A stretch of 53,844 nt of DNA from Candidatus Theseobacter exili. Its GTDB lineage: Bacteria > Auribacterota > JACPWU01 > Theseobacterales > Theseobacteraceae. The position numbers and the translations under genes were made by a program. Of this stretch, positions 29,286 through 53,844 are shown piece after piece (positions within the stretch are counted from its first letter, which is position 1; every line of letters starts with the position of its first letter). The DNA is taken from assembly GCA_030765365.1 (NCBI GenBank), contig JAVCCS010000076.1, positions 1-53,844 of the forward strand, in the 5' to 3' direction. Under the pieces are notes generated by a model. It worked only from the letters and a program-made list of their open reading frames with translations, searched no databases and was not told the origin of the DNA.

Positions 29286-29594
29286 TTACTTATCCATCTC
29301 ACTAATCACTTCCCAGCCAGCATCTTCTTTTCTCACAACTACATCTACATTCTTCCCTAGAGTTGCAAAATTTGGCCAGGTTAGTTTTACCAGTACTTTA
29401 ACGGTTTTCGCATTTTCCTGGTTAAACTTGAGGAACTTAACTGATATTTCTTTATCTTTTTTATCGTAATACTGAATTATCTTTTCGGAAATTTCAGTTT
29501 TTGTTTTTTGAAAAATCTGAGAGCTGCTGCATGAAACAGAAATAAATGCGGCTAATAGGATACTAAGAAATGAATAACTAGCAACTGATTTCAA
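29286..29594 (-). CDS. Small putative lipoprotein
   Basis: 102 aa. Signal peptide ending in the lipobox-like ISVSC. Lies 10 nt downstream of the SDR gene on the same strand. Confidence 0.6.
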   Translation of the reverse strand: MKSVASYSFLSILLAAFISVSCSSSQIFQKTKTEISEKIIQYYDKKDKEISVKFLKFNQENAKTVKVLVKLTWPNFATLGKNVDVVVRKEDAGWEVISEMDK

Positions 29595-29604
29595 TCGCTT
29601 CTCC

Positions 29605-30360
29605 CTATTTGGTAAAAGAAGTGCCTTTTAGATGCCGTCCTCCATCCACAAACAATACCTGCCCGGTAGTAAAACTACTTTGCAACAGAAACAACACTGC
29701 ATCAGAAACATCCTTTTCACAACCGTGCTGTTCTAAAGGAATCATCTTTGCTCTTTCTTCAACATAAGACATATCGGTGCCTTCTGGAGGCAGAACAAGA
29801 CCTGGAGCAACCGCATTTACTGTTATGTCGGGGGCAAGTTCAAGAGCCAACATTTTTGTCATTTCAAGAAGAAGTTTTTTACTTAAATCATATGCAGCAT
29901 GATCCCTGTCATAGCCAGTAATTCTGGAGTCAAGCAGGTTTATAATTCTTCCTGTACTGCCTGTTTTAACAAATTTACGGGAAAGGATAAATGGGGCTAC
30001 AGCATTAATTTGAAGATTCTTCAAAAGATCTTCAATGGAAAACTCCAACAATCTGTCTGAAGGGAAAATTGATGCATTGTTAATCAAGATATGAATATCA
30101 CCTGCTATTTGAAGACATCTTGAAATAAGATCATCACATTGATCTCTGGATTCAAGGTCTGCCTTAATAGTCCATACGTTAACTCCTAAAGCACGAATCT
30201 CATCTTTTAATATATTGGCTTCTGTCTCTGATTCATTGTAATGAACTAAAATATTTACGCCCTTTTTTGCTAATGCAATACAAATAGCCCTTCCAAGACG
30301 GCGTGCAGCACCGGTAACTAAAGCAGTTTTTCCTTTGAGCGAAAAATCTTTTTGCTTCAT
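29605..30360 (-). CDS. SDR-family oxidoreductase of the pteridine-reductase (PTR1/FolM-like) subtype
   Basis: 251 aa. TGAARRLGRAI (the TGxxxRxG variant of the cofactor motif) followed by ILVHYNESETEA, then NNASIF and the catalytic YDLSK. Confidence 0.7.
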   Translation of the reverse strand: MKQKDFSLKGKTALVTGAARRLGRAICIALAKKGVNILVHYNESETEANILKDEIRALGVNVWTIKADLESRDQCDDLISRCLQIAGDIHILINNASIFPSDRLLEFSIEDLLKNLQINAVAPFILSRKFVKTGSTGRIINLLDSRITGYDRDHAAYDLSKKLLLEMTKMLALELAPDITVNAVAPGLVLPPEGTDMSYVEERAKMIPLEQHGCEKDVSDAVLFLLQSSFTTGQVLFVDGGRHLKGTSFTK

Positions 30361-30403
30361 ATCTAAATCAATCTCTTAATTTGAAATTTACATTCCTGTT
30401 TTC

Positions 30404-31981
30404 TCAAGATTTTTTCCAGGAATAGTACGAAAGAGCATCTTCCAACCATTCATTTGAATTTCTGATGAGTCTTTCCCAATTTGATGCAAGAGAAAGGCCT
30501 CGTGCTGTATCAGCATTCCCTTCACATAACAAAGCAGAAGGAGCAGCTAAATCAATTTGCACTCTTACAGGAACCCTGCAGCGTTCTTCTTCAGGAAGAC
30601 TCTCAAGCAATTGAACCATTGCCTTTGCACCGCTGGACAAAGCACGAAACAATTGAGCTTCACCGCCTATCGCATTAACCATTAACTTATTTATCGGAAC
30701 TAGTCTAACAATTTCCAGAGCACCTGTTTGCTTGTTAGAAATATTGTCAGCTCCAACATACCCTATTCCATCAGGTGAAAATTCTATTTGAAAGATTCTT
30801 GAATATATTGTCTCAAGTATAATTCCTTCTGTTGAAAGCCTGTAATGAGCCCTTAATCCCCATGTTCCGAATTCAATTTGACGGTTTACAATAGGATGAT
30901 ATCTTTTCTGAAATTTGTTTTCAAAATCACAAACGGCATTAACGATAGTTTGCGCTGTTTCAGCACGGGTCTTAGCCTCTTTTCCCATTGCTTCATGCTG
31001 TTTTTCCCCGGATACACCTAAATATGCTTTCATTGTTTCTTCTCGTGAACTCAATCCCATTTCTTTCTGCATTTGTTCAATGTTTAATTTTAAATAAGTA
31101 TCCCGGGTTGATTCCTCCGTTTTAAAAAGGTCATAGATCCAAAGTAGTTCTCTTATTACATGCGGATTATCTGCGTCAAAATCAATAAAGCTGGGATGAG
31201 CGACTGAAGATTTTTCTGAAACCTTTGACATATCCGGCAACAGATAATCATCACCGTGTTTGAGTATTCTGAAACCTCCGAGTCCTCCTCCGCCTTCAGC
31301 CGGTTTAATAAAAAATTTCTTAATCCCCAGCTGACATTCCATATCATCCACCGCTGCCATGATCCTTTCAACTACCTCTTCCACCGAATCATCACCAACA
31401 TGAACCGCGTAAAAATGTGCAACAAGATCCCATTCAGAAGAATTTTTCGAAAGAAGATCGTACGTTCTGGCTTTATCTGAAAATACACTTCCCGGAGCAG
31501 TCAATTTACCCGGCACTACTACAGCACCATTTTCTTCTATTACATTACAAAGGGACAAATCATATGCTCTCTTGTCAACACACTGACTAAACACAAGGGT
31601 ATCATGTGCATTTCCATCAAGAGCCTTTAGCAGTTCATCTCTTTCATTAACTACAACTATCGGAATTTGCACTCCTTTTTTATCTAAACTGGTTTTGAAA
31701 ATCCGCATGGATTCATGAGAAAGAGGCAGGCTGTCGTTAGATGCATCAATTATTACTATTTTATCAGGAGAAACTTCACACTCTTCTCTATTTAATCTAA
31801 ATGCATTGAATTCAGTGTTTATCTTCAAATGTTTATTGAATTGATCAATAAGCTTCCCGTTATATTCTGCTTCAAGTCCATCAAATTTCTTTGCAGCAAT
31901 AAAAAATGGCGCTGACGTTTCTGGAACTGTCGGTGTCTTGCCCTGATAAGCTGACGCATCTCTTTTTAAAGTGTCTTTCAT
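30404..31981 (-). CDS. Divergent ATP-grasp-like ligase (525 aa) with a large insertion
   Basis: FFIKPAEGGGGLGGFRI (ATP-binding Lys strand) and VRVQIDLAAPSALLCEGNAD (a D...E-x-N metal triad-like motif), separated by about 230 aa of unrecognised sequence. N-terminus has DK-containing pre-grasp-like VVVPGKLTAPGSVFSDKARTYDLL. Confidence 0.5.
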   Translation of the reverse strand: MKDTLKRDASAYQGKTPTVPETSAPFFIAAKKFDGLEAEYNGKLIDQFNKHLKINTEFNAFRLNREECEVSPDKIVIIDASNDSLPLSHESMRIFKTSLDKKGVQIPIVVVNERDELLKALDGNAHDTLVFSQCVDKRAYDLSLCNVIEENGAVVVPGKLTAPGSVFSDKARTYDLLSKNSSEWDLVAHFYAVHVGDDSVEEVVERIMAAVDDMECQLGIKKFFIKPAEGGGGLGGFRILKHGDDYLLPDMSKVSEKSSVAHPSFIDFDADNPHVIRELLWIYDLFKTEESTRDTYLKLNIEQMQKEMGLSSREETMKAYLGVSGEKQHEAMGKEAKTRAETAQTIVNAVCDFENKFQKRYHPIVNRQIEFGTWGLRAHYRLSTEGIILETIYSRIFQIEFSPDGIGYVGADNISNKQTGALEIVRLVPINKLMVNAIGGEAQLFRALSSGAKAMVQLLESLPEEERCRVPVRVQIDLAAPSALLCEGNADTARGLSLASNWERLIRNSNEWLEDALSYYSWKKS

Positions 31982-32040
31982 TTTTTTCTATCCTGACAAT
32001 TTGTTTAACATAAAAAATATCATATATTTATTTGGACAGG

Positions 32041-33492
32041 TTACAAACCTGTATGCCCAAATTCACAAGGCACAGCAGACATTGAATCAGCTGGAACCAG
32101 TTTCAGTTTATCATATAAAAATTTTGCTATTTTTTCAGATTCAGCATTAAGATTTATTAAATCAGGCCCAAGAACACTGCCCCATCTCTGCATTTTTAAT
32201 ACAGGCGCACCGGATTCAACACTCATACCTTGTGGCATTCCTCCGGCAACAACAATTTCGTTTTCTGCAACGCTGTCAGTTAATGTTACATCATCTCTTA
32301 TAAATTCAATCTCACTATCTTTAACTCTATAAACTCCAGATTTTACATGGCCCGTAGCAACACAGGTTTCCTTATGCAGGTTGTGAAGGATCAGTTGAGA
32401 ACCGGATAAAACTACTTCCCTATTATTTTCATTGAGATAATCTTTTAATACATACTCATTTAAAAAACTATTTATATGATAAAAAACAATAGGAACCGCG
32501 CCCTCTTTTGTCTCGGCAAGTGTTTGCAACGGCGTTGAATTCTGGAAACGTGGATTAATTTCCAAAGGATAAGGTTTCCCTTCATGAACAATAAAATCGA
32601 TCCCGAATATTCCTTTATAACCATAATGCGCCATCATTTTACCTATAGTACGAGTGTATTCACGAACTTCATCAACAATTTTACTGTCCAGGAATCTAAC
32701 CGAAGTAAAATCATTTCCACAATAGATTGTTTCGCGCATGGCACAAGATTCAGGGCCAACAATCTGTAAAGAAGGCTGACTGACATGGACGGATATCTGG
32801 CCTTTATCATTAAATACTACTGCATTTATATTTAGAGAATATCCGTTAAGATATCGGGATAAAATTGCAGTCTTATCAATATTGCTTTTTTGAATTTTAT
32901 CCAGATCCTCCGATGTCTCAATAAAGAATGTATTCAACCCTGAAGACCCATAAGGAAACTGAACAACCGGCCTTCTGCCGAACTTTGCTACAATTTCGGG
33001 AAAGCGAATATTACCAAGTTCAGCTGTTTCTCCAGGTATTTTTGGAATGCCAAGTTTCTTCAAAAGCCTTCGAAAAATAATTTTATTGTCAAAAAAATTC
33101 TTAATTCTTTCTGGAACAGCCACAATCAGAAAGTTTTTCTGTTTACTTACAAGATTTTCCAGTTCGCCAAAGGACCTATAGCAAAGAAAATATACAGGCT
33201 TCTTAAGTGTATCCAGGAAACTATAGAATCTCTGTCCTTCGACACCTGAAACAGACTGATCCAGGCTTTTATTGCTCCAGAACCTTCTGAATCCCAACAT
33301 CTTTTCAACAGAAAAAGGAGTAATATTGTTAGAAAATGCTGTAACTTCCGGTCCGGAATCACAACTGTAAATAAAGGAAAATGGTATTAAATGGCACATT
33401 GACACCCCATCGTGCGCCCTTTGTCCAAACCAGCCCCAGCTTCCTTCCGGAAGAATTTCAGGCCGTTCTTTTTGTGCTGTATTTGGATACAT
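32041..33492 (-). CDS. ATP-grasp domain ligase (483 aa), substrate unknown
   Basis: DNKIIFRRLLKKLGIPKIPG, VVQFPYGSSGLNTFFI and GYKGIFGIDFIVHEGKPYPLEINPRFQNS (the classical ExN motif). GGAGAA RBS lies inside the upstream gene, with a 1-nt TAATG overlap. Confidence 0.8.
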   Translation of the reverse strand: MYPNTAQKERPEILPEGSWGWFGQRAHDGVSMCHLIPFSFIYSCDSGPEVTAFSNNITPFSVEKMLGFRRFWSNKSLDQSVSGVEGQRFYSFLDTLKKPVYFLCYRSFGELENLVSKQKNFLIVAVPERIKNFFDNKIIFRRLLKKLGIPKIPGETAELGNIRFPEIVAKFGRRPVVQFPYGSSGLNTFFIETSEDLDKIQKSNIDKTAILSRYLNGYSLNINAVVFNDKGQISVHVSQPSLQIVGPESCAMRETIYCGNDFTSVRFLDSKIVDEVREYTRTIGKMMAHYGYKGIFGIDFIVHEGKPYPLEINPRFQNSTPLQTLAETKEGAVPIVFYHINSFLNEYVLKDYLNENNREVVLSGSQLILHNLHKETCVATGHVKSGVYRVKDSEIEFIRDDVTLTDSVAENEIVVAGGMPQGMSVESGAPVLKMQRWGSVLGPDLINLNAESEKIAKFLYDKLKLVPADSMSAVPCEFGHTGL

Positions 33493-34601
33493 TATTTCTC
33501 CAATGTTAAAAAATCCGGAATATGATATGGATCTTCAATTATTCCTTCATCCAGCATTTTTTCGATTAAAATAATATCATTCAATGAAACCTTACCAACA
33601 TATAAAAGATTAATATTATTGCCATTCTGAACGAATTCCTTGATCTTTTTCCTTCCGCTAAGATAATGCACATCTTTTATTAATGCGCCAGGCCCGGAAG
33701 TATCAACCAGTCCTCTTTTTGTCCTTTCCACCAAACGATATGCTAACTGTTCAGGGAAATATTTATTCAGTTCCATATAAGTTTCATAGAAAGACAATTT
33801 CAATGATAACTCAACAGCCAGAGCACGCCCTGCATAAACCTTCTCCTGGGCACAATCTAAACAGGAACAAATATCCTCTGCATACACTGCCAAACCCTCT
33901 TCTGTTTCATTATACCCGGCAAAACCGGTCTGAAACATTTTAAATGGCTGCCTGCTTCCGTTTTCGCCTCTTAAAACATGCACCTGTATTTCATGAACCT
34001 TCAGCCTTTCAATTTCACTCGACATATAATTAAGATCCCGATTTACAATTACTTTTTTATGCCGTGGATCTATACGAACCTTTGAAGCTACATTTGATTC
34101 CAGAACAATCTTCCAGGGCAAAGATAAACGTTCCAATTCATTTTTTAAGGATTCAAACACTTCATGAGCTGAAACAGGTTCATTAAAATCTGCCATACTG
34201 GTATTTAAAAGTATCTTTCTGGCATCTTTGATGACCTCTTTATCACATACACCATGCAATTTCTCGGAAAAAACGCTGAAATTCCTGTCGTGCCTGAATT
34301 CCAGAAAATCAAGTTCAATTAAAAGCCTTTTCAACTGCTTGCTGTATAATTTTCCTAAAGCAGAATCATCAAAAGTAAATTCGGATAAAGACTTACGGAA
34401 AGAATCAAGTTCAGGACTAGTTTGATATATGTATTGTGGATTATATATTTTCCCGCTGCTGATATTATCTAAAAATAGTTTTCTCTCTTCAGGTCTGTTA
34501 ACTGGAAGTAAAACAGATGAAAAGTCTATTTTCCCCAGCATTTGCCTGACATAATTTTCAAAAATAATTATTTGTTCAAATACATTATTCATAAAATCCA
34601 T
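33492..34601 (-). CDS. DUF1704 / MATCAP-like metallo-carboxypeptidase family protein ('QEGLA motif' family)
   Basis: 369 aa. HEIQVH (HExxxH, nt 33978-33995) followed 26 residues later by ETEEGLAVYAE (the EEGLA part is at nt 33888-33902). This is the signature arrangement of the DUF1704 family. Confidence 0.75.
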   Translation of the reverse strand: MDFMNNVFEQIIIFENYVRQMLGKIDFSSVLLPVNRPEERKLFLDNISSGKIYNPQYIYQTSPELDSFRKSLSEFTFDDSALGKLYSKQLKRLLIELDFLEFRHDRNFSVFSEKLHGVCDKEVIKDARKILLNTSMADFNEPVSAHEVFESLKNELERLSLPWKIVLESNVASKVRIDPRHKKVIVNRDLNYMSSEIERLKVHEIQVHVLRGENGSRQPFKMFQTGFAGYNETEEGLAVYAEDICSCLDCAQEKVYAGRALAVELSLKLSFYETYMELNKYFPEQLAYRLVERTKRGLVDTSGPGALIKDVHYLSGRKKIKEFVQNGNNINLLYVGKVSLNDIILIEKMLDEGIIEDPYHIPDFLTLEK

Positions 34602-34779: not shown

Positions 34780-37578
34780 TTATTTAGCGTTTGGATCGTT
34801 GGATAATGGTTTACTATAATCAACTTTTCCTCCGAACTTCCCTGGTTTAGGGTTCTTTGTTCCCCACCAGTTATACTCAGCTTTCACCTTTGACTTCCCC
34901 TTATTTACAATGTCATATTTTTCATGACCATATATTGAATTTTTACCAATACTTCCCTTTTCACCGCCGCCAAAATCAACATATCCCCTTTTAACATCAG
35001 GATCAGTTCCAATATATAGACCAGCCCCGCCATTATTGGCTATTACATTATTTTCACCAAAAATCTTCGCTATTGCATTATCTTTGCTATAAACATTAAT
35101 ATCCGCTCCTGACTTTTGGTTATTTGACAAATTACAACCTGTCATATTTATTTTTGTTGTGCCCAAATAGCTTCTTAAGCCAAAACCATGATTATTCTTC
35201 TTTGCCTCAAGCCCTGATATGTTCACTACAGTTTTTTGATTATCAAAACTACCTTCAATGCCCGCACTGTCTTTATTTCTATTCGCGATCGTGTCTTTTA
35301 CATTTATGCTTGCCTTCTTAAATCCATCTACATCGAATCTAGCACCAAAATAACCGTTTTTTGAAATATTACAATTTGAGATATCAGCTTCGAATTTATT
35401 ACCACTTTTGGATCCTGCCACTACCAGAAAACCAACACCTTTATTCTCCGCAAAAGAAGAACTCGATATATTATGCTGAACGTTTTCAAACCCGGATATT
35501 GCAGTAATTAATCCACCCTCATTTTTTTCAAACTTACAATCAGAAATATTTAAAGCATAATTTCCCCCATCCGATGAAGAGGTACTGGACCCTCCTCCCG
35601 GAGTGGTATAGCCCAAAGCGCTTACTCCACTGGCTGGTGCCTCTCTTTCATAACGAGACCGGATAAGCACACCACAATATTCAGTGGGAATACTAGCCTC
35701 AACATCTCCGCCGCCTTCAAATTTTTTCTCATAATTCTTACTAAAAACCGAATTCAGCAAATCAATGGAAGTATCTTTGTAATTAAAAGTACTAATCTGT
35801 ACGCCACTATTATTTTCTGAAATATCACAGTTAGAGATTACCGCTTTAAAAGATTCTCCTGGTTCGCCCATATATGAATCTGACGCGGTAACAAAACCTG
35901 GCCTCCTTATTCTTCCATACATAGCATTAATAACAACACCAGAATCATTACTGTTCTTAATTGTGCACTGATCAATTGTTACATCTAGCTCTTTTAAAGA
36001 ATCAGCAATTATCAAAACCCCAACATCCTCGCCATTAATAACGTTATTTCTTATCACCAAATCACTAACATTATAAGCAACTACCCCATAAGCGCCGAAG
36101 GGTATTTGACTAGCCTCACTTCCCGAAGCGCTCACACTGCCAAAAGGATTCACAACATATTCACCGCCGCCTGGGGGAAAAGTTCCTCTGGGAAGATCAA
36201 CAAATCCAAAAGCCGATGCGCTCTTTAGCTTAAATCCGTAAACCTGCGATTTGTCAGCCATCGTAACAGCAGGCCCACCCTGTCCGTCAATCACCGGACG
36301 TTTGCCGGATTCACAACCGTATATTACCTCGCCGCTGCCCCAGAGTTTTACATTCTTTCTGAGAGTAACGTTTTCCTTGTAGCTTGATTTTGCGTCGGAT
36401 ACATATACGTATTTTTTTCCGAAAGCCTTTTTAACGCCCTTACCTATTGTAGGATATGGATTTTCATATTTACCGTTTGATGTGCCGTTAAAATCCTTAT
36501 CAACAAATGTAATATCATCAAGTAAAACCGCTTTAAGCGACCTTGTTTCAACACTGACTTCATCTTTCAGCTTGCTTGCATCTTCAATATAGTCAGACTC
36601 ATCAAGGATTATATCTATGTCACGAATGACCATTTCAGTCATTCTTTCTTTCATTGTCCTTTTCCGCATAGTAAACCAGTCTTTGGCTCCTTCAAACGGG
36701 TTCTTTCCGCTGAACAGGTTCCCGAAATCAAAAGGAACATTCAGGCGCGCTCCCACATAGTAATCTGTCCCGTGAAGCTCATCATTCTCGTAAATCTCAG
36801 CATCAAATATCAAAGCAGGCATAGCACGAACTTCAAGACGCCCCTTAAATCCTTTGATGTCCTTTCCGTAATCGTTATCGTAATAATAGTATCCTCCAAA
36901 GATACGTGTTTCCATTACATCCTGCAGCACAGGCAATCTGACTCCAATCTCAAAATCCACACCGTCAAGCGCTTTTTCAAATCGGTCATAATGCCGGTTT
37001 GTGATCCTGGTAGTTGCAACCTGTTTACCACTCTGACTTACAGTATTCTCAGTAAAATAAGGGCTGCCCCATGAAGACTCCATTGAAGTTTCAGATTCCT
37101 GCATGTCATATGAATCAATTATTTCTTCATCATCTTGAGGCCAGTAAAAATTAATCCTGGCATCAACCCAGTCAGTTAACATCTCACCGCCAACACCAAC
37201 CTGATTGAAGCGATTCTTGTTAACTGTTTCACGAGTATCAAAAAAAACGTTACCGCCAAAAATAAACTTTTCATCAAACACCAGTGTACGGCCGCCAATA
37301 CCTACATTCTGTTCATTTGCCGGCCCCTCGGAAATAGCCACTCTTGGATCTATAAAGAGAAATGCCGTATCAGATCCAACAACAGGCGCAAGAATATCAA
37401 CATAACCCGTATTGTCATCTGAACTGAATTTGCCCCCAAGTGTTACAGCAGCAGGAGGAAGGGGTGCTTTAACCTGCGGCTGTTCCGGTGTTTGTGCAAA
37501 AGAAGCCTTAACACCTGCAAACATAACCATTAACAATAAAAAAACAATTACGCTTTTACCAAAAAAATTCTTTCTCAT
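34780..37578 (-). CDS. Inverse-autotransporter-type outer membrane protein with parallel beta-helix (PbH1) passenger
   Basis: 932 aa. Signal peptide (..FAGVKASFA/Q). The N-terminal about 300 aa resembles the intimin/invasin beta-domain (NVGIGGRTLVF..FGGNVFFD..RFNQVGVGGE..ARINFYWP..GVDFEIGVRLP..GGYYYYDND). The rest is repetitive NxxIxxN beta-helix turns (ISNCDISENN, ISDCKFEKNEG, ISNCNISKNG) ending in YNWWG. Confidence 0.7.
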   Translation of the reverse strand: MRKNFFGKSVIVFLLLMVMFAGVKASFAQTPEQPQVKAPLPPAAVTLGGKFSSDDNTGYVDILAPVVGSDTAFLFIDPRVAISEGPANEQNVGIGGRTLVFDEKFIFGGNVFFDTRETVNKNRFNQVGVGGEMLTDWVDARINFYWPQDDEEIIDSYDMQESETSMESSWGSPYFTENTVSQSGKQVATTRITNRHYDRFEKALDGVDFEIGVRLPVLQDVMETRIFGGYYYYDNDYGKDIKGFKGRLEVRAMPALIFDAEIYENDELHGTDYYVGARLNVPFDFGNLFSGKNPFEGAKDWFTMRKRTMKERMTEMVIRDIDIILDESDYIEDASKLKDEVSVETRSLKAVLLDDITFVDKDFNGTSNGKYENPYPTIGKGVKKAFGKKYVYVSDAKSSYKENVTLRKNVKLWGSGEVIYGCESGKRPVIDGQGGPAVTMADKSQVYGFKLKSASAFGFVDLPRGTFPPGGGEYVVNPFGSVSASGSEASQIPFGAYGVVAYNVSDLVIRNNVINGEDVGVLIIADSLKELDVTIDQCTIKNSNDSGVVINAMYGRIRRPGFVTASDSYMGEPGESFKAVISNCDISENNSGVQISTFNYKDTSIDLLNSVFSKNYEKKFEGGGDVEASIPTEYCGVLIRSRYEREAPASGVSALGYTTPGGGSSTSSSDGGNYALNISDCKFEKNEGGLITAISGFENVQHNISSSSFAENKGVGFLVVAGSKSGNKFEADISNCNISKNGYFGARFDVDGFKKASINVKDTIANRNKDSAGIEGSFDNQKTVVNISGLEAKKNNHGFGLRSYLGTTKINMTGCNLSNNQKSGADINVYSKDNAIAKIFGENNVIANNGGAGLYIGTDPDVKRGYVDFGGGEKGSIGKNSIYGHEKYDIVNKGKSKVKAEYNWWGTKNPKPGKFGGKVDYSKPLSNDPNAK

Positions 37579-37707: not shown

Positions 37708-38178
37708 TTACCGGCTCTCAGTTCGGCGTATCACTGATACCAAAAAACCATATGCTTTCTCATAAATACCGGGGCAGGAGGTTTCCCTGGGACCTGCAAT
37801 ATTCAGGGTTTCAATACAGCATTTCTTCAGCCAATTGAATACATCATCACCTCTGTTTTCGAAGTCATTAATATTTACTACCAGGCAAGGTTTTTTTAGC
37901 CGTTTTGCAACCTTCAATGTAAATGCAGTGCCTCCGGTCAAAGGGTCCGTAGATAAAATGAGAGTACCATCGCTGTCACGGACATTCCATTCGGTACGCT
38001 GTGAATACCTCTTTTGAGGTGTTTCTTTTAGAATATAACACTCAGGCAATATGCCGTCCTCAGCTATTCTTCCATTAGGGCACCAGCCTCCTGTCCTAAC
38101 ACCTGCTGTCAATGCAACATCAAGTGCTGCACGATCAACACCTGTTTGCCCGCCGGATATGATTTTTTGAAATTCCAC
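37708..38178 (-). CDS. cpYpsA-type SLOG-fold protein ('putative molybdenum carrier' family)
   Basis: 156 aa. ISGGQTGVDRAALDVAL..G...GGWCPNGRIAEDG...RTEWNVRDSDGTLI..GGT matches the circularly permuted YpsA family pattern. Confidence 0.75.
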   Translation of the reverse strand: MEFQKIISGGQTGVDRAALDVALTAGVRTGGWCPNGRIAEDGILPECYILKETPQKRYSQRTEWNVRDSDGTLILSTDPLTGGTAFTLKVAKRLKKPCLVVNINDFENRGDDVFNWLKKCCIETLNIAGPRETSCPGIYEKAYGFLVSVIRRTESR

Positions 38179-46370: not shown

Positions 46371-49300
46371 TTACGCCATTGCATCAATAGCTTTTTGTGC
46401 CCGTATATAAGAATCAATATCTTCTACTTTCTTATTATAAACAGGCGGTAAGAGAAACTTTTCCGGATCATTCAATATCTCTTCAATAGATAATCCGGCT
46501 AACGCTTCTTCTGAAATCTGGTCTGTTTCATAAAACTCACGTAATATTTGTCTAAGCAATTTAGAGGCTCTATCATCCAGAACAGCATCGTCTTTTCCTA
46601 CGCTTGCTATATATCCAGCCAGATCCATTGAAATATCAATATATCCAACCTGGCTTGCTGATAGCGGCAAAATGCTTGCTTTCTGTACTGAAGAAGGAGA
46701 TTTTCCTTCTTCTGAAAGAACAATTGCAATCTGATTGTTCTCAGGAAGCATTTTAAACCTTTTCCAATTGTTATTAAGTTGTTCCTGCGCAGTAGAAGAA
46801 AGGCCATGTATCTTCTTTCCGTCAAGAATAGCCAAACGGCTTATATTTTTCATAATAAACTGCGTTCTTTTCATTTCATCCATCCATTCAAGTAAACGAC
46901 CATCTACAACGACCGGCATTTCTTTATCAGTGCTATCTCTGAAATAATCAATACCTTCAAGAACACGTGACGCAGCTTCTTTTGAACTGCTAACAGTGGT
47001 TTTGCCATGTGACAAGTGACAATAAGTGCCTGTTGGCCCTTCCATATGTTCGGCTGAATAACCATCAGGTATTTCCCCTGTATTAAGAAGCGCCTCAACA
47101 CAGTTTCTTACAATAACTGTCAGCTCTTCAAACGAACTATTCCTTATGTTATCTATTAATACCCATTCAGCGTCTCCTGCCCGTTTACCAACCATCATAC
47201 TGATAACAGACATCGCATCTTCCAATATAGCTGAATCAGGCTCTGCGTTTTCACTATACATGCTGACATCACCACTAAGCAAATTGATTACAATAACTTC
47301 TGTCTCTGGCTTAAGAGCAAATAACTCCATAAGCTCCTTTGTAAGAAGGTCTGCCGCTTCCTTTAGTCTTTGTTCTTCCTGTTTCTTAATAACAGCTCCT
47401 GCAACTCCAATTAATCTTTTGCCAGAGAGTTGTGCCTCGGTTTTCATCCATTCCGCCAGTTCTTCAGCTACAGCATCTAAAACTGCTCCCTTCAATTTAC
47501 CAATCTCCACTCCACCTATCTGGACATACCATATTCCTCTTGAATCCAGCACGGCAGATGCCCTTTCAACAGCTTCGGCTACTTCAGCATGTCCAAACTG
47601 TTTCAGTATTTTTCTGGCTTCGGCTTTTGCTATAACCTTTTTTAATCTGCTGATCTCTTCGGCGCTAATACCAGCCTCTTTAACAACAACAGCAGAACTT
47701 CTGAAATCTTTAAGTCCTTTTTCCATCCTATAACGTTTGCGTTCCATTTCAATCTTAAGCAGAGTCTTCAAACAGTCCAGATTCTTCCCTTCTGAATCTA
47801 AAAGTTCTTCAAGCAATTCTTCTCCAATAAATACTGTTGATCCAAAAGATTCACCATAATGAGCATAGCTGCTTCCTTTCACAGAATCATCAGCTACAGC
47901 AACACAATTAGCTAAAACTGCTAAACGTGTTTCAGCAAACATCTTTCTGATAGACTCATCTTTCATTAAAAAACTATTAAAACGATCAGCCAGATCTTCA
48001 GAGTTAATCATTTCACCAAGTGTTTCAACAATGATATCTCCATCAAGAGATGTCCTTGTTCGCGGCAAATCAGATTCCATAACCGGCCTGATTATATCTC
48101 CTATATCTGTATTAGTTAGCTTTTCACGATCTGATGGTCCTGAAACCTGTCCATCAGCAGTCAAAGCAAAATTCCCACTTGGTTTTGTTTGACTAAATAT
48201 CGATTTGGCTTCATCAATAGCATCCAAAACCATTTTATTATCAACTCCAACTTCATCCAGTCTGGACTCCAATTCATCAATTATTCCACTAATACTCATT
48301 TTAATAGTAGCCTGATGCAGGGCAGTCATTTCTTCACTAGGCATATCGACACCTGGAGAAATTTCAGGTCCTTCCGGTACAGGGTTAATTGTAAGGTCTT
48401 CTATCTGCGCAAGGAATCGTTTCATATCATCCAGTAGATCCTGGATAGGAACAGGTTCCATCTTCACTTCAGAACCCACACCTTCCTCCGCATCAAATTC
48501 AGTATCCCCAAGATCTGCAACTGCATCTAATAACGCAGAATGTTCCTCAGGTGTAAAAAGGCCGCGTCCGGCAGATTCGATTTCAGTTACTGGTTGATCC
48601 TTTTTAGGCCTAACTCTATTGACATGTTCATAAATAAGCGCTTTCAGATTATCCGTATCATTGATATTTACATCAAATTGAGGTTCTGTTCCTATAATAT
48701 TCACTACAAACATACGTAATGCATTATTTAATAGCTCATCATCCTCAATTCCTGAAATTCGAAGCACTTTAATAAGATTATCAACCCACGCCTGTACAGA
48801 CTTTTCAAAAAATTCTTCGTGCTCATCGATTAGTTTATTAATAACATAAAAATCACCAAAATCCGTTCCGCGCCCAAGTATATCAACATTGATTATTGAA
48901 CCATGAGCAGCTTGCAATATACCTGTCTGCACTGCACTGAGAAATGTTTTTCCATAATTTGCAGAAAGCATAATAATATATTCTTCAGGAGTCATACCCA
49001 TCTCTGCAATAACTGAATTAAATAATTCTATATTTGGTTTTCCGTTTACATGAAAGAAACTTGCTAAACGCCTGTAATCGCTCACTGGAACACGCAAGCT
49101 CGCGTAATAAGAATCATCAAGATATAGTACACTTAACGACCAACGGCTCAAATCACCGCCAATTGTTAGTAAACTCTCTTCCCTTTGAAGTGAAAGACTT
49201 TCACCTGTGCTCATTCCAACCGGAGTGCCTCTTCCAAATTGATGTTCCCAGTCAAGGAACAAACCAGGTTTTCCTACAAACCCATCAAATACAGTGGAAG

Positions 49301-52300
49301 GAAACATATTATTGATATTATGTTCTTTATATGCTGGCGTACCAAGATTTTTAAATTCAATCCCATAAACATGATGTCGCTGAAGCGTTTCAGACTGAAG
49401 ATCATCACTGCTTCCAACGATTCTAATACCATTCCCATTTTTAATAGTTGCAATAGAATATGGAATAGGAAGCAGCATCGAACGCCCTGATATTCCTAAA
49501 AGAGGCATTTCAAAAGGACTTTCTCCATCTTCATCTACAACACGACGAAGACCGTACCTTTCATATACCTCCAAGTCTGTCAGAGGCCTGACATCTCGCG
49601 TTGTTAGCGCGTCTTCTTTTTTTACATAAAATGGACCTGCTGTAAAAACAAGAGAACCATCTTCGCCATCAATCAATTCTTTATATTCATCTGGCAATTC
49701 TACACCAGCAGGCATATTCCATGAAGCATTCGCCTTTACGTAAACATGCGCATTAACGGGCACAAATGCTGTTCCTTGCTGTAAATACTCAATCTCACCA
49801 GTATTTCTGTCAACCTGAATACTTGCAGCTTTATTTGACAAAGCGGTACTGACTTCTTTTGAAACCCGGTCTTTCAACTTTAATAATACTTTACTAGCTA
49901 TAACAGGAGAATAAACTGACTCAATATTTCTTACAATCCTTGTACAAACACCGCCGCTGTCAATTCTTGAAATGTTTTCTGGATTAGTAATTATTACTTC
50001 GTCTGCAGCACCCGATTGGACTGCTTCAACGGCTGCCTGAACCTTAGGAAGCATACTGCCGGCAGCAAAATGCCCTGCTTCAATATAACCTTTCATTTTT
50101 TCAGGAGTTGCAACAAGAACCTTCTGTTCCTTGACTGAATCTCCAAAATTTAGATAAACACATGGAACCGCTGTTGAAATAATAAGTCTTCTAGTCTTCA
50201 CTTTTCCGGGAGGGCCACGTTCGGTAAATTCTTTTGCTAGTTGTACGGTTGCAAGATCTTTATCGATAACAGCAGGCAGGGGTTCAAGTCTCCCAAACTG
50301 TTTATAAGTTTCATAATCCACAGGGATTCCTCCCCCACCAACGCAAATAACAATCTTTCCATCCTCTACATGTTGTTTAATTCTCTCCATTTCAACAATT
50401 TCAAGAGGGATAGGAGAAGCAACCCTGGGTCTTGTATCAGGACCTTCTGCTGGTTCTATTCCTATAGGTTTTGTCGGATTCTGAAAACCTGAATCATCAC
50501 CGTCTACTGCAACGTGCGTGGGAACAAATACGATCTGCTCACGATCTACACCAAGCTCTACCAAGGCTTCAATAATATCCTCGGCAATCCAGTCCTGAGT
50601 ATCACTCACAACGTCAGCAAGCTGAGCAAGAATTTCATCCGGAGTTTGCCCTGGTCTTTTCCTCCTCTCAAGCAACACTCCTACTTCAGGTCCATTCCCG
50701 TGAGTAATTACTCCGCCGTCCCTAATTGCAGGCAGAACCTTCCTGAGTGTTACCTTTATCTTTCTTTTCTGCTCTCCTCGAATACGGTCAAAATCCTCCG
50801 GATTTTTAGGATCGGCTTCACCAATATCTTCTCCGGAAAGAAGCGAATTTCCTCCTATCGAAATCCAGTTAACAGGCTTAACCGTTCCATTATTTGTTTT
50901 CTTCTGCACCTGATCTTCAAGTTCTTTAAGAAAAACAAATATATCCTTTGGATCAATAGCCGTTACGTTAGGCGATCCTCCTTTAGGAATAAGCCGCCCT
51001 ACCAGTTCCGGCGTAAGATCCTTTATATTAAGAGGTTCTGTAAGTTCTTCTGTATCAAGTAACTCAAACAATGCCTGTTCAAGAAAATCGCGTCCCTTTT
51101 CCTCTCCCAGATATTCAATAAAACTTTCATAAAACGCTCTCTTGAATTCTCTATCCAGCAACTTACTTTGTGCAGCCTCCATATCCCAATCAACATCCCA
51201 CGATCTTGGCATGTGCCCCCAAAGATGAAATATCATATTGCCAGGTGTCTTTAATTCAATTCGATCATCAACATCAAGAATTCTTGGTCCCCTTGTAGTT
51301 CTTTTTGCGTTTCTCCACTTTGCGTCAAGAGCTATTCGGCCATCACCGGTTGCCCATAAATGAATCCATGATTTAACAAATTCCTTTATTAATTCAGGTT
51401 CAATTTTATCTCTGAATATATCCTCATAGGTAGGACCTTCAATGAATTCATCAAACATGAAATTTCTGCCTCTTGCATAAAATTCCGGATAAATATCAGG
51501 ATCACGACTATTTATTCTCTCCTGATGATCGCTATACCCGCCAACATAATCCATATCTGTCTTTCCGGTTTTAGCAGCAATTTTAAGCTCTCCCTGTAGT
51601 GGTTCTTTCCCGGCAATCATGTTAACTCGTACTGAAAAAACCCTCTTTTGAGCGCCTTGAACTGTTTCTCTTGCAATAGAAACAGACTCAATGTCATCAA
51701 TATCTATATCCTTGTTCTTCAATATTTCCTGAACCGCCGTGGCGTCTGCATAAAATCTACTTCTATCTTCCCGTGAAACATCATTATCAAACAGCATCAA
51801 ATCACGTACAGCATTAGCCCGAACACCTGCGTCTGATTTCATTAATTCTCTATGTCTTTGAAGAGCTATATGCCCGGCAAGCCAGAGTAGCTGATGATAA
51901 AACCTTGACTCTGTATCCTTGTATTCTGTCCTCCAGTCCTCTAGACCATCCTGGACCTTAACAACCTTTTCAATTGCCTCAACAACTGCAGACTGCTCCT
52001 GTATCTCGTGGTTCATTTCGGAAGCAGCCTTTGCTGGACGGGTAATAGCTGAAAAATCAAGATATATCTGGGAACGCGACACACCATAATGAGCTCCTGG
52101 AAAATAATGCGGCGGACTACGTCCTGTTTTTTTCCTATAAAAATCTTTGAAATTTTTGTCCAGGTTCTGCACCAGTAACAAAACAGATCCATCGGACGGT
52201 TTCTGAAAAAGTTCAACCTCATTGATTGCATCTATTTGTACCTGAGTAAGAGCAGGCAGACTGCTTTCAATAACGCTACCGTCATCGTCCAGTAATTCAG

Positions 52301-53844
52301 TAGGAACATACTCTCCGTTCTCGTATCTCAGCGCCTGGAATCTGCCTTCATCTAAAATCAATCTTTGTAGAACGGAAGTATATAATGCATTTGCCACATC
52401 AACCATACCCCTTCTTTGTTCATTTAAAGAAAGTTTCTGTATTTCCTGCAACAATAATTCATCCATTCCACCTGGCTGAAGCTTGTCAATAACCGCATTT
52501 GCACCAATCTTACGCAATTTTCCTTCATCGCTGGCTGCACCTGCTGCCAAAACAACAATGTCTGGCTGGGGAATTGCAGAATTGCGAATCTCTGCAATCA
52601 AACGCCCGCCCTGCTTTTCTACAGCAGCCATTCCCTGTGTATCATTACCCATTTTCAAGTCAGTAACCACTAAATCAATCGGAGTTCCTCTATCAGCATT
52701 GTCCTGCAAAATTTTCATTGCTTCTGCATGATCTCTGGCCTGCAGTAACTGTTGTCCCGGAAACCTTTCCCTTAAAACACTATTCAAGTGCAATAAAATT
52801 TTCAGTTTATCATCAACATGCAAAATCCTCTGATATCCGGTTTCTGTTTCGGTTGCGGCTTCCCGTTCGGCACCATAAGTTTCTGTTAAAGTGGCACCTG
52901 GTGTTTCCGCTGTAATTCTCCTCTTCTTTTTTATAGCCAAAGCACAGGGCTGACCGGCAGATGTTTCAAATTCATGTATATCTTCAACCAGTCCAGAAAA
53001 AGGTTCACTTTCAAATATTTCACGAGCTTTTCCAATAGGAGAGGCCTCAAAAGTATTTATATTCAACTGTCCATCATAAAAAAAGACAAGAACACCGTCC
53101 TCAGCAACCAGATTTTCCAGTATATGTCTTAGAAAATACGTATAAGGCATTATTGCGTCTGCATCAGACGGGTGAAATCCCCTTCTAAGTGCAAAAAGCT
53201 CTATAAAAGGCCACATGTTATACATTATGACCCCTTTTGCCTTACCCTTTTTTCTGCTGATAAAATCAAGCTCATCATGCATCTTCTCGAGAAAAGCGTC
53301 GTCAAAGAAATCCCCATTGAAAAATAAAATCTTCGGAAGCTCCCTTGCATCTGTATAAACATTTTCAGGTTCCAATTCCAGCCTGTCAACATTGACAATG
53401 CGATAAGCATCGATATTAACCGGAAAAGATCCGGATCCCAGGTTAAGGTAATAATCATCGGGATTTCTTGTTTCCATTCCCAACTGATCCAAAAGTGAAG
53501 TCATGTTAATTGTAACCTGCGCTCTATATTCGGCTGGCTCCTCTTCCTGATTTATTGACAAGTTAATTGGATTAAACTGGTGCACCCTTGACCAATCAAT
53601 TGTTCTTGATGAAGTTTGCATTCTATTGACAAACGCATTCCAGTCTTCGCGATCTTCCTGCATCCGCATCCTGTTTTCTTCCTCAAGGCATTTTACATCA
53701 TCACCAAAATAGTCAGATGAAGCATTGTCAAGTTTTCCAACAAAAGCTTTTCCCTCATCCGGAGCAGCAGTAAATGCGTCAATTATCCATCCGTCATCTG
53801 TCTGCACCCACACATGATATGCCGGAGCTCTGATATAATAAAAC
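46371..53844 (-). CDS. Giant multidomain protein (>2,480 aa; 5' end outside window): MTase-like, receiver, kinase-like, carbamate-kinase and SelO-like modules plus an unknown C-terminal region
   Basis: Single uninterrupted frame. The ORF-track 'M' at 53813 is a GTG, and the frame stays open to the window edge (..FYYIRAPAYH-VWVQTDDGW..), so the true start is probably upstream. Domain evidence is listed separately. Confidence 0.85.
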   Translation of the reverse strand, partial: FYYIRAPAYHVWVQTDDGWIIDAFTAAPDEGKAFVGKLDNASSDYFGDDVKCLEEENRMRMQEDREDWNAFVNRMQTSSRTIDWSRVHQFNPINLSINQEEEPAEYRAQVTINMTSLLDQLGMETRNPDDYYLNLGSGSFPVNIDAYRIVNVDRLELEPENVYTDARELPKILFFNGDFFDDAFLEKMHDELDFISRKKGKAKGVIMYNMWPFIELFALRRGFHPSDADAIMPYTYFLRHILENLVAEDGVLVFFYDGQLNINTFEASPIGKAREIFESEPFSGLVEDIHEFETSAGQPCALAIKKKRRITAETPGATLTETYGAEREAATETETGYQRILHVDDKLKILLHLNSVLRERFPGQQLLQARDHAEAMKILQDNADRGTPIDLVVTDLKMGNDTQGMAAVEKQGGRLIAEIRNSAIPQPDIVVLAAGAASDEGKLRKIGANAVIDKLQPGGMDELLLQEIQKLSLNEQRRGMVDVANALYTSVLQRLILDEGRFQALRYENGEYVPTELLDDDGSVIESSLPALTQVQIDAINEVELFQKPSDGSVLLLVQNLDKNFKDFYRKKTGRSPPHYFPGAHYGVSRSQIYLDFSAITRPAKAASEMNHEIQEQSAVVEAIEKVVKVQDGLEDWRTEYKDTESRFYHQLLWLAGHIALQRHRELMKSDAGVRANAVRDLMLFDNDVSREDRSRFYADATAVQEILKNKDIDIDDIESVSIARETVQGAQKRVFSVRVNMIAGKEPLQGELKIAAKTGKTDMDYVGGYSDHQERINSRDPDIYPEFYARGRNFMFDEFIEGPTYEDIFRDKIEPELIKEFVKSWIHLWATGDGRIALDAKWRNAKRTTRGPRILDVDDRIELKTPGNMIFHLWGHMPRSWDVDWDMEAAQSKLLDREFKRAFYESFIEYLGEEKGRDFLEQALFELLDTEELTEPLNIKDLTPELVGRLIPKGGSPNVTAIDPKDIFVFLKELEDQVQKKTNNGTVKPVNWISIGGNSLLSGEDIGEADPKNPEDFDRIRGEQKRKIKVTLRKVLPAIRDGGVITHGNGPEVGVLLERRKRPGQTPDEILAQLADVVSDTQDWIAEDIIEALVELGVDREQIVFVPTHVAVDGDDSGFQNPTKPIGIEPAEGPDTRPRVASPIPLEIVEMERIKQHVEDGKIVICVGGGGIPVDYETYKQFGRLEPLPAVIDKDLATVQLAKEFTERGPPGKVKTRRLIISTAVPCVYLNFGDSVKEQKVLVATPEKMKGYIEAGHFAAGSMLPKVQAAVEAVQSGAADEVIITNPENISRIDSGGVCTRIVRNIESVYSPVIASKVLLKLKDRVSKEVSTALSNKAASIQVDRNTGEIEYLQQGTAFVPVNAHVYVKANASWNMPAGVELPDEYKELIDGEDGSLVFTAGPFYVKKEDALTTRDVRPLTDLEVYERYGLRRVVDEDGESPFEMPLLGISGRSMLLPIPYSIATIKNGNGIRIVGSSDDLQSETLQRHHVYGIEFKNLGTPAYKEHNINNMFPSTVFDGFVGKPGLFLDWEHQFGRGTPVGMSTGESLSLQREESLLTIGGDLSRWSLSVLYLDDSYYASLRVPVSDYRRLASFFHVNGKPNIELFNSVIAEMGMTPEEYIIMLSANYGKTFLSAVQTGILQAAHGSIINVDILGRGTDFGDFYVINKLIDEHEEFFEKSVQAWVDNLIKVLRISGIEDDELLNNALRMFVVNIIGTEPQFDVNINDTDNLKALIYEHVNRVRPKKDQPVTEIESAGRGLFTPEEHSALLDAVADLGDTEFDAEEGVGSEVKMEPVPIQDLLDDMKRFLAQIEDLTINPVPEGPEISPGVDMPSEEMTALHQATIKMSISGIIDELESRLDEVGVDNKMVLDAIDEAKSIFSQTKPSGNFALTADGQVSGPSDREKLTNTDIGDIIRPVMESDLPRTRTSLDGDIIVETLGEMINSEDLADRFNSFLMKDESIRKMFAETRLAVLANCVAVADDSVKGSSYAHYGESFGSTVFIGEELLEELLDSEGKNLDCLKTLLKIEMERKRYRMEKGLKDFRSSAVVVKEAGISAEEISRLKKVIAKAEARKILKQFGHAEVAEAVERASAVLDSRGIWYVQIGGVEIGKLKGAVLDAVAEELAEWMKTEAQLSGKRLIGVAGAVIKKQEEQRLKEAADLLTKELMELFALKPETEVIVINLLSGDVSMYSENAEPDSAILEDAMSVISMMVGKRAGDAEWVLIDNIRNSSFEELTVIVRNCVEALLNTGEIPDGYSAEHMEGPTGTYCHLSHGKTTVSSSKEAASRVLEGIDYFRDSTDKEMPVVVDGRLLEWMDEMKRTQFIMKNISRLAILDGKKIHGLSSTAQEQLNNNWKRFKMLPENNQIAIVLSEEGKSPSSVQKASILPLSASQVGYIDISMDLAGYIASVGKDDAVLDDRASKLLRQILREFYETDQISEEALAGLSIEEILNDPEKFLLPPVYNKKVEDIDSYIRAQKAIDAMA
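48654..49376 (-). other. SelO/YdiU-like (protein-kinase-fold) module inside the giant protein (aa about 1480-1720)
   Basis: Three collinear blocks resemble SelO: IEFKNLGTPAYKE (compare LKGxGxTPYSR), SLRVPVSDYRRLASFFH (compare RVxxSxxRxGxFEH), and AAHGSIINVDILGRGTDFGDF (compare HGVMNTDNxSILGxTIDYGPF). The match was made by eye only. Confidence 0.4.
49926..50870 (-). other. Carbamate-kinase-type amino-acid-kinase module inside the giant protein (aa about 982-1296)
   Basis: Collinear with all carbamate kinase signature blocks that I recall: ISIGGNSLL, VITHGNGPEVG, FQNPTKPIG, VASPIPLEIVE, ICVGGGGIPV, AVIDKDLA, GHFAAGSMLPKVQAA and VIITNPENI. Confidence 0.8.
52476..52829 (-). other. Receiver (REC) domain inside the giant protein (aa about 329-446)
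   Basis: RILHVDDK.. (acidic pair), IDLVVTDLKM (phospho-acceptor Asp), IVVLAAG, and AVIDKLQ (conserved Lys). Confidence 0.75.

Follow-up and report, generated by a model that had tools for sequence, protein, structure and literature searches.

A candidate amide ligation and trimming system: a MATCAP-family peptidase gene linked to two divergent ATP-grasp ligase genes in Candidatus Theseobacter exili and other bacterial lineages

Results

Gene organization of the locus

The 53,844-nucleotide contig JAVCCS010000076.1 of Candidatus Theseobacter exili (GenBank assembly GCA_030765365.1), whose full length we refer to as the window, carries on its minus strand a cluster of five co-directional genes, g1 to g5. 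Our analysis shows that the first three of them, encoding a predicted zinc peptidase of the MATCAP/DUF1704 family and two predicted ATP-grasp enzymes, form a unit (the trio) that recurs in other bacterial phyla, and it leads us to consider a system in which amide bonds are formed by the ligases and trimmed by the peptidase. A previous reading of this DNA, made without database searches (the sequence-only reading), had proposed the five genes as an operon; all of its open reading frames (ORFs) were recovered. In the direction of transcription, the locus comprises the following features:

34759 to 34723, minus strand: terminator-like hairpin, stem of 15 bp including 7 G-C pairs, followed by a T-run
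34601 to 33492, minus strand: g1, predicted MATCAP/DUF1704 zinc peptidase, 369 amino acids (aa)
33492 to 32041, minus strand: g2, predicted ATP-grasp ligase, 483 aa
31981 to 30404, minus strand: g3, ATP-grasp protein by predicted fold, 525 aa
30360 to 29605, minus strand: g4, predicted short-chain dehydrogenase/reductase (SDR) of the PTR1/FolM type, 251 aa
29594 to 29286, minus strand: g5, small signal-peptide/lipoprotein-like protein, 102 aa, TTG start

The one-base TAATG overlap that had been described for g1 and g2 is present: the sequence reads ...GGAGAAATAATGTAT, the stop and the start codon share one base, and a GGAG ribosome-binding site precedes the start at this junction. The remaining intergenic distances (59 nt for g2-g3, 43 nt for g3-g4 and 10 nt for g4-g5) agree with the range of 10 to 59 nt given before. 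As terminator-like sites were detected in neither the g3-g4 nor the g4-g5 gap, all five genes are, judged from the sequence, probably co-transcribed in this genome. The strong terminator reported upstream of the operon corresponds to the hairpin, which is located between the stop codon at 34780 and the g1 start, about 120 nt ahead of g1 and directly after the stop of the gene for a 932-aa protein. As a terminator-like element of this upstream inverse-autotransporter gene, it delimits the transcription unit on the 5' side. The promoter should be found in the AT-rich gap of about 120 nt that extends down to 34602, and a TATAAT-like box is present near 34628-34623. On the 3' side of g5, a gene for an HPP-family membrane protein is convergently oriented on the opposite strand. 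The G+C content is about 38%. An Rfam scan of the whole window gave zero matches, as did the anti-phage defence models of PADLOC when applied to g1-g5.

Conservation of the g1-g2-g3 trio across phyla

A scan of one genome per species, covering 185,579 species, returned 42 g3 loci. ORFs were called in all fetched loci and searched with g1-g5, which yielded 46 unique g3 loci (L003 and L036 are the same contig and were counted once); addition of L132, a Desulfobacterales locus, and of L133 brought the collection to 48 loci other than that of the window. All 46 unique loci have g2 as the gene immediately upstream of g3, and so have both of the added ones. A g1 gene is found directly upstream of g2 in 30 of the 46 loci, is absent in 6 and could not be assessed in 10; with L132 and L133 included, it is present in 32 of 38 assessable loci. 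The six loci that lack g1 despite enough upstream DNA are L009, L013, L019, L029, L040 and L045. L133 is a 3-kb contig carrying g1-g2-g3, and its g2 protein is 89% identical to that of the window. Median intergenic distances are as short as 5 nt (g1-g2) and 3 nt (g2-g3), and overlaps of 4 nt are common.

The trio occurs in Omnitrophota, Elusimicrobiota, Chlamydiota, KSB1 and Desulfobacterales. Since the order g1-g2-g3 recurs in dozens of independent loci, this arrangement is far beyond what chance would produce. Furthermore, the flanking genes are entirely different among the Omnitrophota, Elusimicrobiota, Chlamydiota and Desulfobacterales loci; the trio is therefore held together by selection and not by common ancestry of the surrounding region. 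Consequently, the association of a MATCAP-family HExxxH peptidase with two divergent ATP-grasp ligases, the core of the sequence-only reading, is confirmed across phyla, and the neighborhood is conserved with respect to g1-g2-g3. It is not conserved with respect to g4 and g5, neither of which was found in any of the 48 other trio loci. Hence, the conserved unit consists of three genes, not five. Within this unit, g2 is the obligate partner of g3, and g1 is a frequent but non-obligatory member.

Among the Omnitrophota, the trio is embedded in a longer operon with the order SPL-like radical SAM gene, SagB-family dehydrogenase gene, g1, g2, g3 and CstA-type transporter gene. The radical SAM and CstA genes were found in 24 of these loci and the SagB gene in 16, with intergenic distances that are often negative. 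The gene for the CstA-type peptide/pyruvate transporter follows g3 directly in the 24 loci and often overlaps it, and the SagB-family peptide dehydrogenase matches TIGR03605 with 136 bits (cutoff 78). This operon setting is seen at L001 (3299-11281) and at 23 other Omnitrophota loci. In five Omnitrophota loci without g1 (L009, L013, L019, L029 and L045), the SagB gene is missing as well, and g2 comes directly after the radical SAM gene. SagB and radical SAM genes are absent from the trio loci of Elusimicrobiota, Chlamydiota and Desulfobacterales, and the window carries no homologs of the radical SAM, SagB or CstA genes.

Several features of individual trio loci deserve mention. The radical SAM gene overlaps g2 by 4 nt in L045. 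The g1 gene of L008 is broken into two ORFs, perhaps because of a frameshift or as a pseudogene. Several Omnitrophota loci have tRNA genes upstream of their radical SAM gene; the conserved small ORFs in this position, considered as precursor peptides, turned out to be translated tRNA genes and were dismissed. No conserved small ORF adjoins the trio itself, whose intergenic gaps of a few nt leave no room for one. In two Desulfobacterales loci (L005, 5589-6869; L132, 4630-5910), a citrate synthase gene with the orientation of g1 is situated 12-17 nt upstream of it. It may be a hint at a citrate-derived substrate such as a citryl-amino acid; since its product is a bona fide type I GltA (610 bits), however, and the arrangement is confined to two related genomes, we regard it as a probable housekeeping neighbor. 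Twelve metagenome-assembled genomes (MAGs) that were assembled by third parties and deposited as 'uncultured Planctomycetia' (L007, L013, L014, L017, L021, L025, L027, L029, L031, L039, L044 and L047) possess a trio whose identity to the query, 45-49%, falls in the range of the loci labelled Omnitrophota, and the same wider gene order is found in several of them. The label may consequently be a placeholder.

The g1 protein is a predicted MATCAP-family metallocarboxypeptidase

The g1 protein is a member of the Pfam family MATCAP (PF08014), which it matches with 152.8 bits (cutoff 27; E=1.6e-44), and the same family is annotated (precomputed) on g1 orthologs of other loci. It contains the motifs HEIQVH (residues 203-208) and ETEEGLA (residues 232-238, with EEGLA at 234-238). 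The DUF1704/MATCAP assignment made previously is thus borne out by both profile and motifs. The score against TIGR02421 ('flavohemoglobin expression-modulating QEGLA motif protein') is 173.5 bits, below the cutoff of 338.65, and by its sequence g1 is assigned to a subfamily separate from TIGR02421.

Already the single g1 sequence retrieves human MATCAP (KIAA0895L, 7z5g) with E=1e-11, and a profile of 22 g1 orthologs does so with E=6e-26. In these alignments, which are confined to the catalytic domain of MATCAP, HEIxVH of g1 is aligned with HEIGTH and E(T/A)EEGLA with TEEGLA; an RxKRGxxDTS block and an N-terminal NPxFxY block are common to both proteins. Residues H203, E204, H208, E232 and E234-E235-G-L-A are invariant in 30 g1 orthologs from the related loci, and the conservation of the HExxxH motif among close homologs, on which the earlier proposal depended, is therefore given together with that of EEGLA. 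MATCAP is a gluzincin with a degenerate HExxxH motif, whose E281Q and E281A mutants, altered in the Glu of this motif, are dead and whose third metal ligand resides in the 'EEG' motif (PMC13522474, PMC10499314). Its characterized members cut Tyr and Glu from acidic protein tails and strip polyglutamate chains (PMC10499314). From this homology, g1 is predicted to be a gluzincin metallocarboxypeptidase of the MATCAP/DUF1704 family. The translations of g1, g2 and g3, inspected by eye, contain no evident signal peptide, which suggests that the system is cytoplasmic.

The g2 protein is a predicted ATP-grasp ligase outside the curated families

The 483-aa ATP-grasp protein with an ExN motif that had been recognized in g2 matches the Pfam family ATP-grasp_3 with 45.1 bits (cutoff 23.2; E=1.5e-11). 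Among 39 g2 relatives, D299, E311-x-N313 (E311-I-N313 in the window), R315 and Q317 are invariant, so that both residues of the ExN motif are conserved. An AlphaFold2 model of g2 with a mean predicted local distance difference test (pLDDT) value of 89.3 has its best Foldseek matches with biotin carboxylase, the biotin carboxylase (BC) domain of pyruvate carboxylase (PC) and PurK (E~1e-15; template-modelling (TM) score ~0.6; 12% identity). According to profile and model, g2 is hence placed in the ATP-grasp superfamily, within the structural class formed by biotin carboxylase, PurK and carbamoyl-phosphate synthetase (CPS).

The best NCBIfam model for g2 is PRK06524, named 'biotin carboxylase', to which it is collinear over about 300 residues, with a score of 97.4 bits vs. 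a cutoff of 684. The NCBIfam models of genuine acetyl-CoA carboxylase (ACC), PC, PurK and CPS all score far under their cutoffs. We dismissed a function of g2 as biotin carboxylase on the grounds of these sub-cutoff scores and because no gene for a biotin carrier or a carboxyltransferase is present in any locus. The g2 protein consequently falls outside every curated equivalog, yet within the ATP-grasp superfamily. The product name 'biotin carboxylase' given by NCBI to PRK06524 looks like a misnomer.

By the profiles PF03133, PF08443 and TIGR00768, neither of the two ligases of the trio groups with the TTL/TTLL or RimK families. The Pfam family TTL (PF03133) has no match among 39 g2 and 34 g3 relatives, RimK (PF08443) gives weak matches in 6 of the 39 g2 relatives (best E 0.009) and in none of the 34 g3 relatives, and RimK and TTL structures are absent from the top 50 Foldseek matches of both proteins. 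The models of LysX, graspetide ligases, MptN and CofF match neither g2 nor g3.

Distant g2-like genes (about 30% identity) also occur without g1 or g3, one of them following a split NAD synthetase gene. On a Nanoarchaeota contig (JAUSIT010000016.1; L006, 7012-11582), a g2-like ATP-grasp gene is followed by genes for an unassigned 407-aa protein and a GshB/MptN-like ATP-grasp protein; a nitroreductase/SagB-like gene is located divergently upstream and ftsZ about 1.5 kb upstream, and no MATCAP gene is present. The 407-aa protein and the 431-aa neighbor of another g2-like gene (L131) were considered as equivalents of g3 and discarded, since they are unrelated to g3 and to each other. On a plasmid of Chondrinema litorale (L135, 1-9241), the neighbors of a PRK06524 gene encode GabT, a CN-hydrolase, ornithine decarboxylase, an APC permease and a C45 peptidase, and partner genes of the biotin-dependent kind are absent.

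The g3 protein represents a sequence-isolated ATP-grasp family

No Pfam or NCBIfam family matches g3, and Pfam searches to an E value of 5 across 34 relatives gave nothing consistent. When compared with the sequences in the Protein Data Bank (PDB), the g3 profile returned spurious VPS28 matches only (E about 0.05). The AlphaFold2 model (mean pLDDT 89.5; predicted TM score 0.91) has an ATP-grasp fold, and its best Foldseek matches are D-Ala-D-Ala ligases, CPS, DcsG, an ATP-grasp peptide ligase from Streptomyces and PurK (probability 1.00; E 2e-6 to 1e-4; target-normalized TM score about 0.6). The model also contains a helical insertion of about 85 aa (residues 273-357, approximately) within the catalytic region, which is shorter in the Elusimicrobiota versions. 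The earlier description of g3 as an ATP-grasp-like protein with a large insertion is in agreement with this predicted structure.

Several elements are invariant throughout the g3 family: a Gly-rich loop after a lysine (K226-P-x-E-G-G-G-G-L-G-G-F-R238), the residues R473, D477 and E487-G-N489, and a loop comprising G407-Y-x-G-x-D-N-I-S-N-K-Q-T-G420. As the latter is the only low-confidence stretch of the model, it is probably a mobile lid. A comparison of the g2 and g3 profiles with hhalign (probability 2%) revealed no detectable likeness. An exhaustive search of 1.84 billion representative proteins with the g3 hidden Markov model (HMM) recovered 43 clusters and no remote tail that would bridge to a known family; the g3 family is therefore small, sequence-isolated and uncatalogued. 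According to the structural model, g3 belongs to the ATP-grasp superfamily by fold alone and is not catalogued in Pfam or NCBIfam.

The family comprises about 124 proteins, every one of which is annotated as 'hypothetical'. They come mainly from Candidatus Omnitrophota, and also from Elusimicrobiota, Chlamydiota, KSB1 and Desulfobacterales. The g3 protein of the window is 45-48% identical to those of Omnitrophota, which share 55-79% identity with each other, and it branches as a deep sister of the group formed by the Omnitrophota and Chlamydiota proteins. A metagenome scan returned no close relative of it.

g4, g5 and other genes of the window

The g4 protein contains the sequence T16-G-A-A-R-R-L-G23, which fits the TGxxxRxG signature, and matches adh_short_C2 with 129 bits. 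Its best NCBIfam scores, 221 vs. 281 for PRK09134 and 190 vs. 288 for PRK09135 (pteridine reductase), are both under the cutoff. The nearest g4 relatives, found in metagenomes (41-59% identity), are encoded by genes that are followed by those for FolB, HPPK (FolK) and GTP cyclohydrolase I (FolE), and no trio is present near them on the five longest contigs. The designation of g4 as a PTR1-type reductase is therefore supported by its signature and by the folate operons of its relatives, but not by the equivalog scores. We regard g4, from its sequence, as a predicted pterin/folate-pathway reductase of the PTR1/FolM type that neighbors the trio in this genome only.

The TTG start codon of g5 is preceded by GGAG, and the encoded protein has a hydrophobic N-terminus ending in ...FISVSC22 with an imperfect lipobox. 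It has no family match in Pfam or NCBIfam, and no other trio locus contains a homolog. Of the previous annotation as a small lipoprotein, the hydrophobic N-terminus and Cys22 are thus present; the lipobox is imperfect, however, and the gene is not in the conserved module. g5 is a lineage-specific neighbor and not a component of the module.

The gene located directly upstream of the trio (34780-37578, minus strand) encodes the 932-aa surface protein, which combines an inverse-autotransporter beta-domain with a right-handed beta-helix passenger. Further away from the trio is a gene for a stand-alone circularly permuted YpsA (cpYpsA) protein of the SLOG family (37708-38178, minus strand; 201 bits). 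The plus-strand segment 38308-46346 encodes an 809-aa protein in which an ABC-type substrate-binding domain is fused to an outer-membrane efflux protein (OEP), and after it an HlyD-type adaptor, an RND pump of the AcrB type and a SpoIIE-type phosphatase. A giant ORF of 2480 aa (46371-53813, minus strand) has as its sole Pfam match a central amino-acid-kinase domain (aa 1035-1277). At the other end of the window, genes for a two-domain PPK2 and a PPK1 polyphosphate kinase (354-1856 and 4491-6590, both plus strand) are present within 6 kb of each other.

Discussion

A model for the function of the trio

The g2 and g3 proteins are two very different ATP-grasp enzymes whose genes are always found side by side and are often translationally coupled, and both retain the motif residues for Mg-ATP binding and acyl-phosphate chemistry. 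We propose that they would act successively, or as a heteromer, to form two ATP-dependent amide bonds, with amino acids and other common carboxylates and amines of the cytoplasm as building blocks. The product would be short and peptide-like, be it a dipeptide or tripeptide, a pseudopeptide or a chain of few amino acids, from which g1 would take off one or several C-terminal residues in the course of turnover, length control or recycling. In this scheme, the ligase pair would represent the biosynthetic core and the peptidase an accessory enzyme, because g1 is missing in some lineages. We give this model, in which two successive amide ligations build a small peptide-like product or chain that is trimmed by g1, about an even chance of being correct. 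It preserves from the sequence-only reading the notion of an amino-acid ligation and trimming system, which is supported by the conserved peptidase-ligase trio and its intact motifs, and abandons the five-gene composition.

Three lines of evidence make us favor a small product. The structural and profile neighbors of both ligases are small-molecule enzymes and not RimK or TTL, related ligases and peptidases are found in gene contexts of amino-acid and small-peptide metabolism, and a CstA-type transporter gene is coupled to g3 in the Omnitrophota. Several findings weigh against this interpretation, however. The only biochemically characterized members of the g1 family act on the C-terminal tails of proteins (tubulin), the structurally nearest neighbors of ATP-grasp enzymes are poor predictors of the substrate class, and the trio of Omnitrophota is preceded by SagB and SPL-like radical SAM genes that are more typical of the maturation of encoded peptides. 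Moreover, no gene beyond the trio is kept across phyla, and the gene context can consequently not name the product.

Alternative explanations

Alternatively, Glu, Tyr or other amino acids might be attached by the ligases to a specific cellular protein with its gene elsewhere, either at the C-terminus or on a side chain, and be removed again by g1. The clear homology of g1 to MATCAP, with an identical metal site, and the trimming of Tyr, Glu and polyglutamate from protein tails by the characterized MATCAP enzymes (PMC10499314) speak for such a cycle, for which RimABK offers a bacterial writer/eraser precedent (PMC11957791, PMC4741518); the lack of a biosynthetic partner that is kept across phyla would also fit a housekeeping protein target encoded elsewhere. 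Neither ligase, however, groups with RimK, TTL or R2K by profile or among the top 50 structures, no gene for a candidate target is linked to the trio, and g1 is dispensable in 6 of 38 loci. The write/erase cycle on a protein C-terminus that was suggested by the sequence-only reading is not favored by any evidence over a small-molecule or oligopeptide product, and we consider it unlikely. A further alternative is that the trio matures or synthesizes an encoded peptide, in the manner of a ribosomally synthesized peptide with post-translational modifications (RiPP), of a LysW/LysX/LysK-like carrier or of pearlins; residues would be joined to, or cross-linked on, a precursor by the ligases, lineage-specific enzymes would do the tailoring, and g1 would release or trim the product. 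This possibility is raised by the tight operon with SagB-family dehydrogenase and SPL-like radical SAM genes in 16-24 Omnitrophota loci, by the SagB/nitroreductase gene that neighbors the g2-like gene on the Nanoarchaeota contig, and by the variation of accessory enzymes around a constant ligase/peptidase core, a pattern into which the SDR of the window could be fitted as well. Yet no conserved small ORF is present beside the trio, where the gaps measure only a few nt, the apparent small ORFs that precede the radical SAM gene are tRNA genes read as protein, neither the window nor the trio loci of Elusimicrobiota, Chlamydiota and Desulfobacterales contain SagB and radical SAM genes, and the ligases match no graspetide or LysX model. 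We hold an encoded peptide to be quite improbable.

Two further explanations concern the chemistry of the ligases and the identity of their substrate. Carboxylating or phosphorylating ATP-grasp reactions that yield carboxyphosphate or acyl-phosphate, as in biotin carboxylase, PurK or CPS, with g1 having either no functional relation to them or the role of an amidase for a non-peptide, could be considered in view of the structures that g2 matches best (biotin carboxylase, pyruvate carboxylase BC domains and PurK), its E-x-N-P-R-x-Q motif, which is typical of that clade, and the presence of CPS, itself built from two ATP-grasp modules, among the structural matches of g3. This is very improbable, given the 97 bits of g2 vs. 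the cutoff of 684 for PRK06524, the scores far below cutoff with the PurK, CPS and ACC models, the lack of a biotin carrier, carboxyltransferase or amidotransferase partner in any locus, and the tight coupling with a peptidase gene, seen in 32 of 38 loci, which argues for an amide product. The sequence-only reading had taken the PTR1-like SDR as an argument for a pterin-type substrate. In such a pathway, a pterin, folate or other cofactor would receive and lose a glutamyl-type tail, with the SDR acting in the same route. MptN and CofF are indeed ATP-grasp enzymes that tail cofactors, g4 is an SDR, probably of the pterin-pathway type, with relatives in FolB-FolK-FolE operons, and its gene is found 43 nt downstream of g3 with no terminator detected in between. 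Nevertheless, the adjacency of the SDR to the trio is conserved in none of the 48 other trio loci, nor does any folate or pterin gene adjoin the trio there; no trio is found on the five longest contigs of the closest g4 relatives, and g2 and g3 match neither the MptN nor the CofF models. The argument from the SDR therefore has no conserved support, and a role in cofactor tailing is highly improbable.

Implications

If the trio were a bacterial protein-tail 'code', in which the ligases add C-terminal residues to a conserved cellular protein and the MATCAP homolog erases them, which we think rather unlikely, it would constitute a prokaryotic forerunner of the tubulin tyrosination/glutamylation cycle that operates via a previously unrecognized ATP-grasp family. 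MATCAP was recognized as a tubulin detyrosinase only recently. The trio provides a concrete three-gene entry into the ancestral biochemistry of its family, whose bacterial members are repeatedly wired to ATP-grasp amide ligases and, in the case reported here, to an obligate ligase pair. Moreover, the trio gives access, in Omnitrophota, Elusimicrobiota and further lineages that have not been cultivated, to a predicted product or modification of the peptide type, and its analysis removes a misleading pterin lead.

Comparison with known systems

The claim that no characterized pathway has this composition holds for the profile libraries, the defence library and the searchable literature that we consulted; literature searches on bacterial DUF1704/COG3930/MATCAP relatives and on Omnitrophota ATP-grasp proteins yielded nothing on function. 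Nevertheless, individual aspects of the trio have counterparts. Like the trio, the tubulin cycle (TTL/TTLL vs. MATCAP/TMCP) pairs an ATP-grasp ligase with a gluzincin carboxypeptidase of the MATCAP family. Unlike in that cycle, the ligases of the trio are not TTL/TTLL proteins, g1 aligns with the catalytic domain of MATCAP only, and the genes form a bacterial operon in which nothing points to tubulin or FtsZ as a substrate. Amide bonds made by ATP-grasp enzymes are undone by dedicated peptidases in a number of other systems, such as RIMKLA/B with GCPII/III (N-acetylaspartylglutamate (NAAG) and beta-citrylglutamate), LysX-LysW-LysK and cyanophycin synthetase/cyanophycinase, some of which combine two ligation activities. 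All enzyme families of these systems differ from those of the trio, which is devoid of a carrier protein, a Mur-ligase domain and an S51, M20 or M28 peptidase.

RimABK is reported to be a bacterial system for the polyglutamylation of ribosomal protein S6, in which an ATP-grasp writer adds residues and a protease trims them (PMC11957791, PMC4741518). The pair RimK/RimB resembles the trio in that a bacterial ATP-grasp writer is encoded together with a trimming protease; it differs by having a single ligase of the RimK family and, in RimB, a retropepsin-like aspartic protease, and neither family matches g1-g3. Closer in its gene composition is a cluster found on Rhizobiaceae plasmids, where a MATCAP-domain gene is located between the genes for an N-formylglutamate amidohydrolase (FGase) and a GshB-type ATP-grasp protein, as on plasmid pShin-02 of Shinella sp. 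HZN7 (L049, 5418-9162). There, the peptidase is a 617-aa 'QEGLA motif' protein of the TIGR02421 type, the first 260 or so residues of which have no Pfam match. This cluster, which is uncharacterized as well, shares with the trio the position of a MATCAP-family peptidase gene next to that of an ATP-grasp amide ligase within one operon. It is set apart by the extra N-terminal region of its peptidase, by g1 scoring under the TIGR02421 cutoff, and by a single ligase of the GshB/RimK type together with an N-formylglutamate amidohydrolase in place of the g2-g3 pair. Taken together, the Rhizobiaceae and trio loci indicate that the linkage of MATCAP-family and ATP-grasp genes is a general bacterial pattern. 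The PRK06524 family, finally, is related to g2 as its best NCBIfam match and is also found near a peptidase (C45) and amino-acid/polyamine genes; it has neither a g3-type partner nor a MATCAP-type peptidase, and g2 reaches 97 of the 684 bits that its model demands. Hence, the opposition of an ATP-grasp ligase and a dedicated peptidase follows a known logic, to which the trio adds the unrecognized ATP-grasp family represented by g3.

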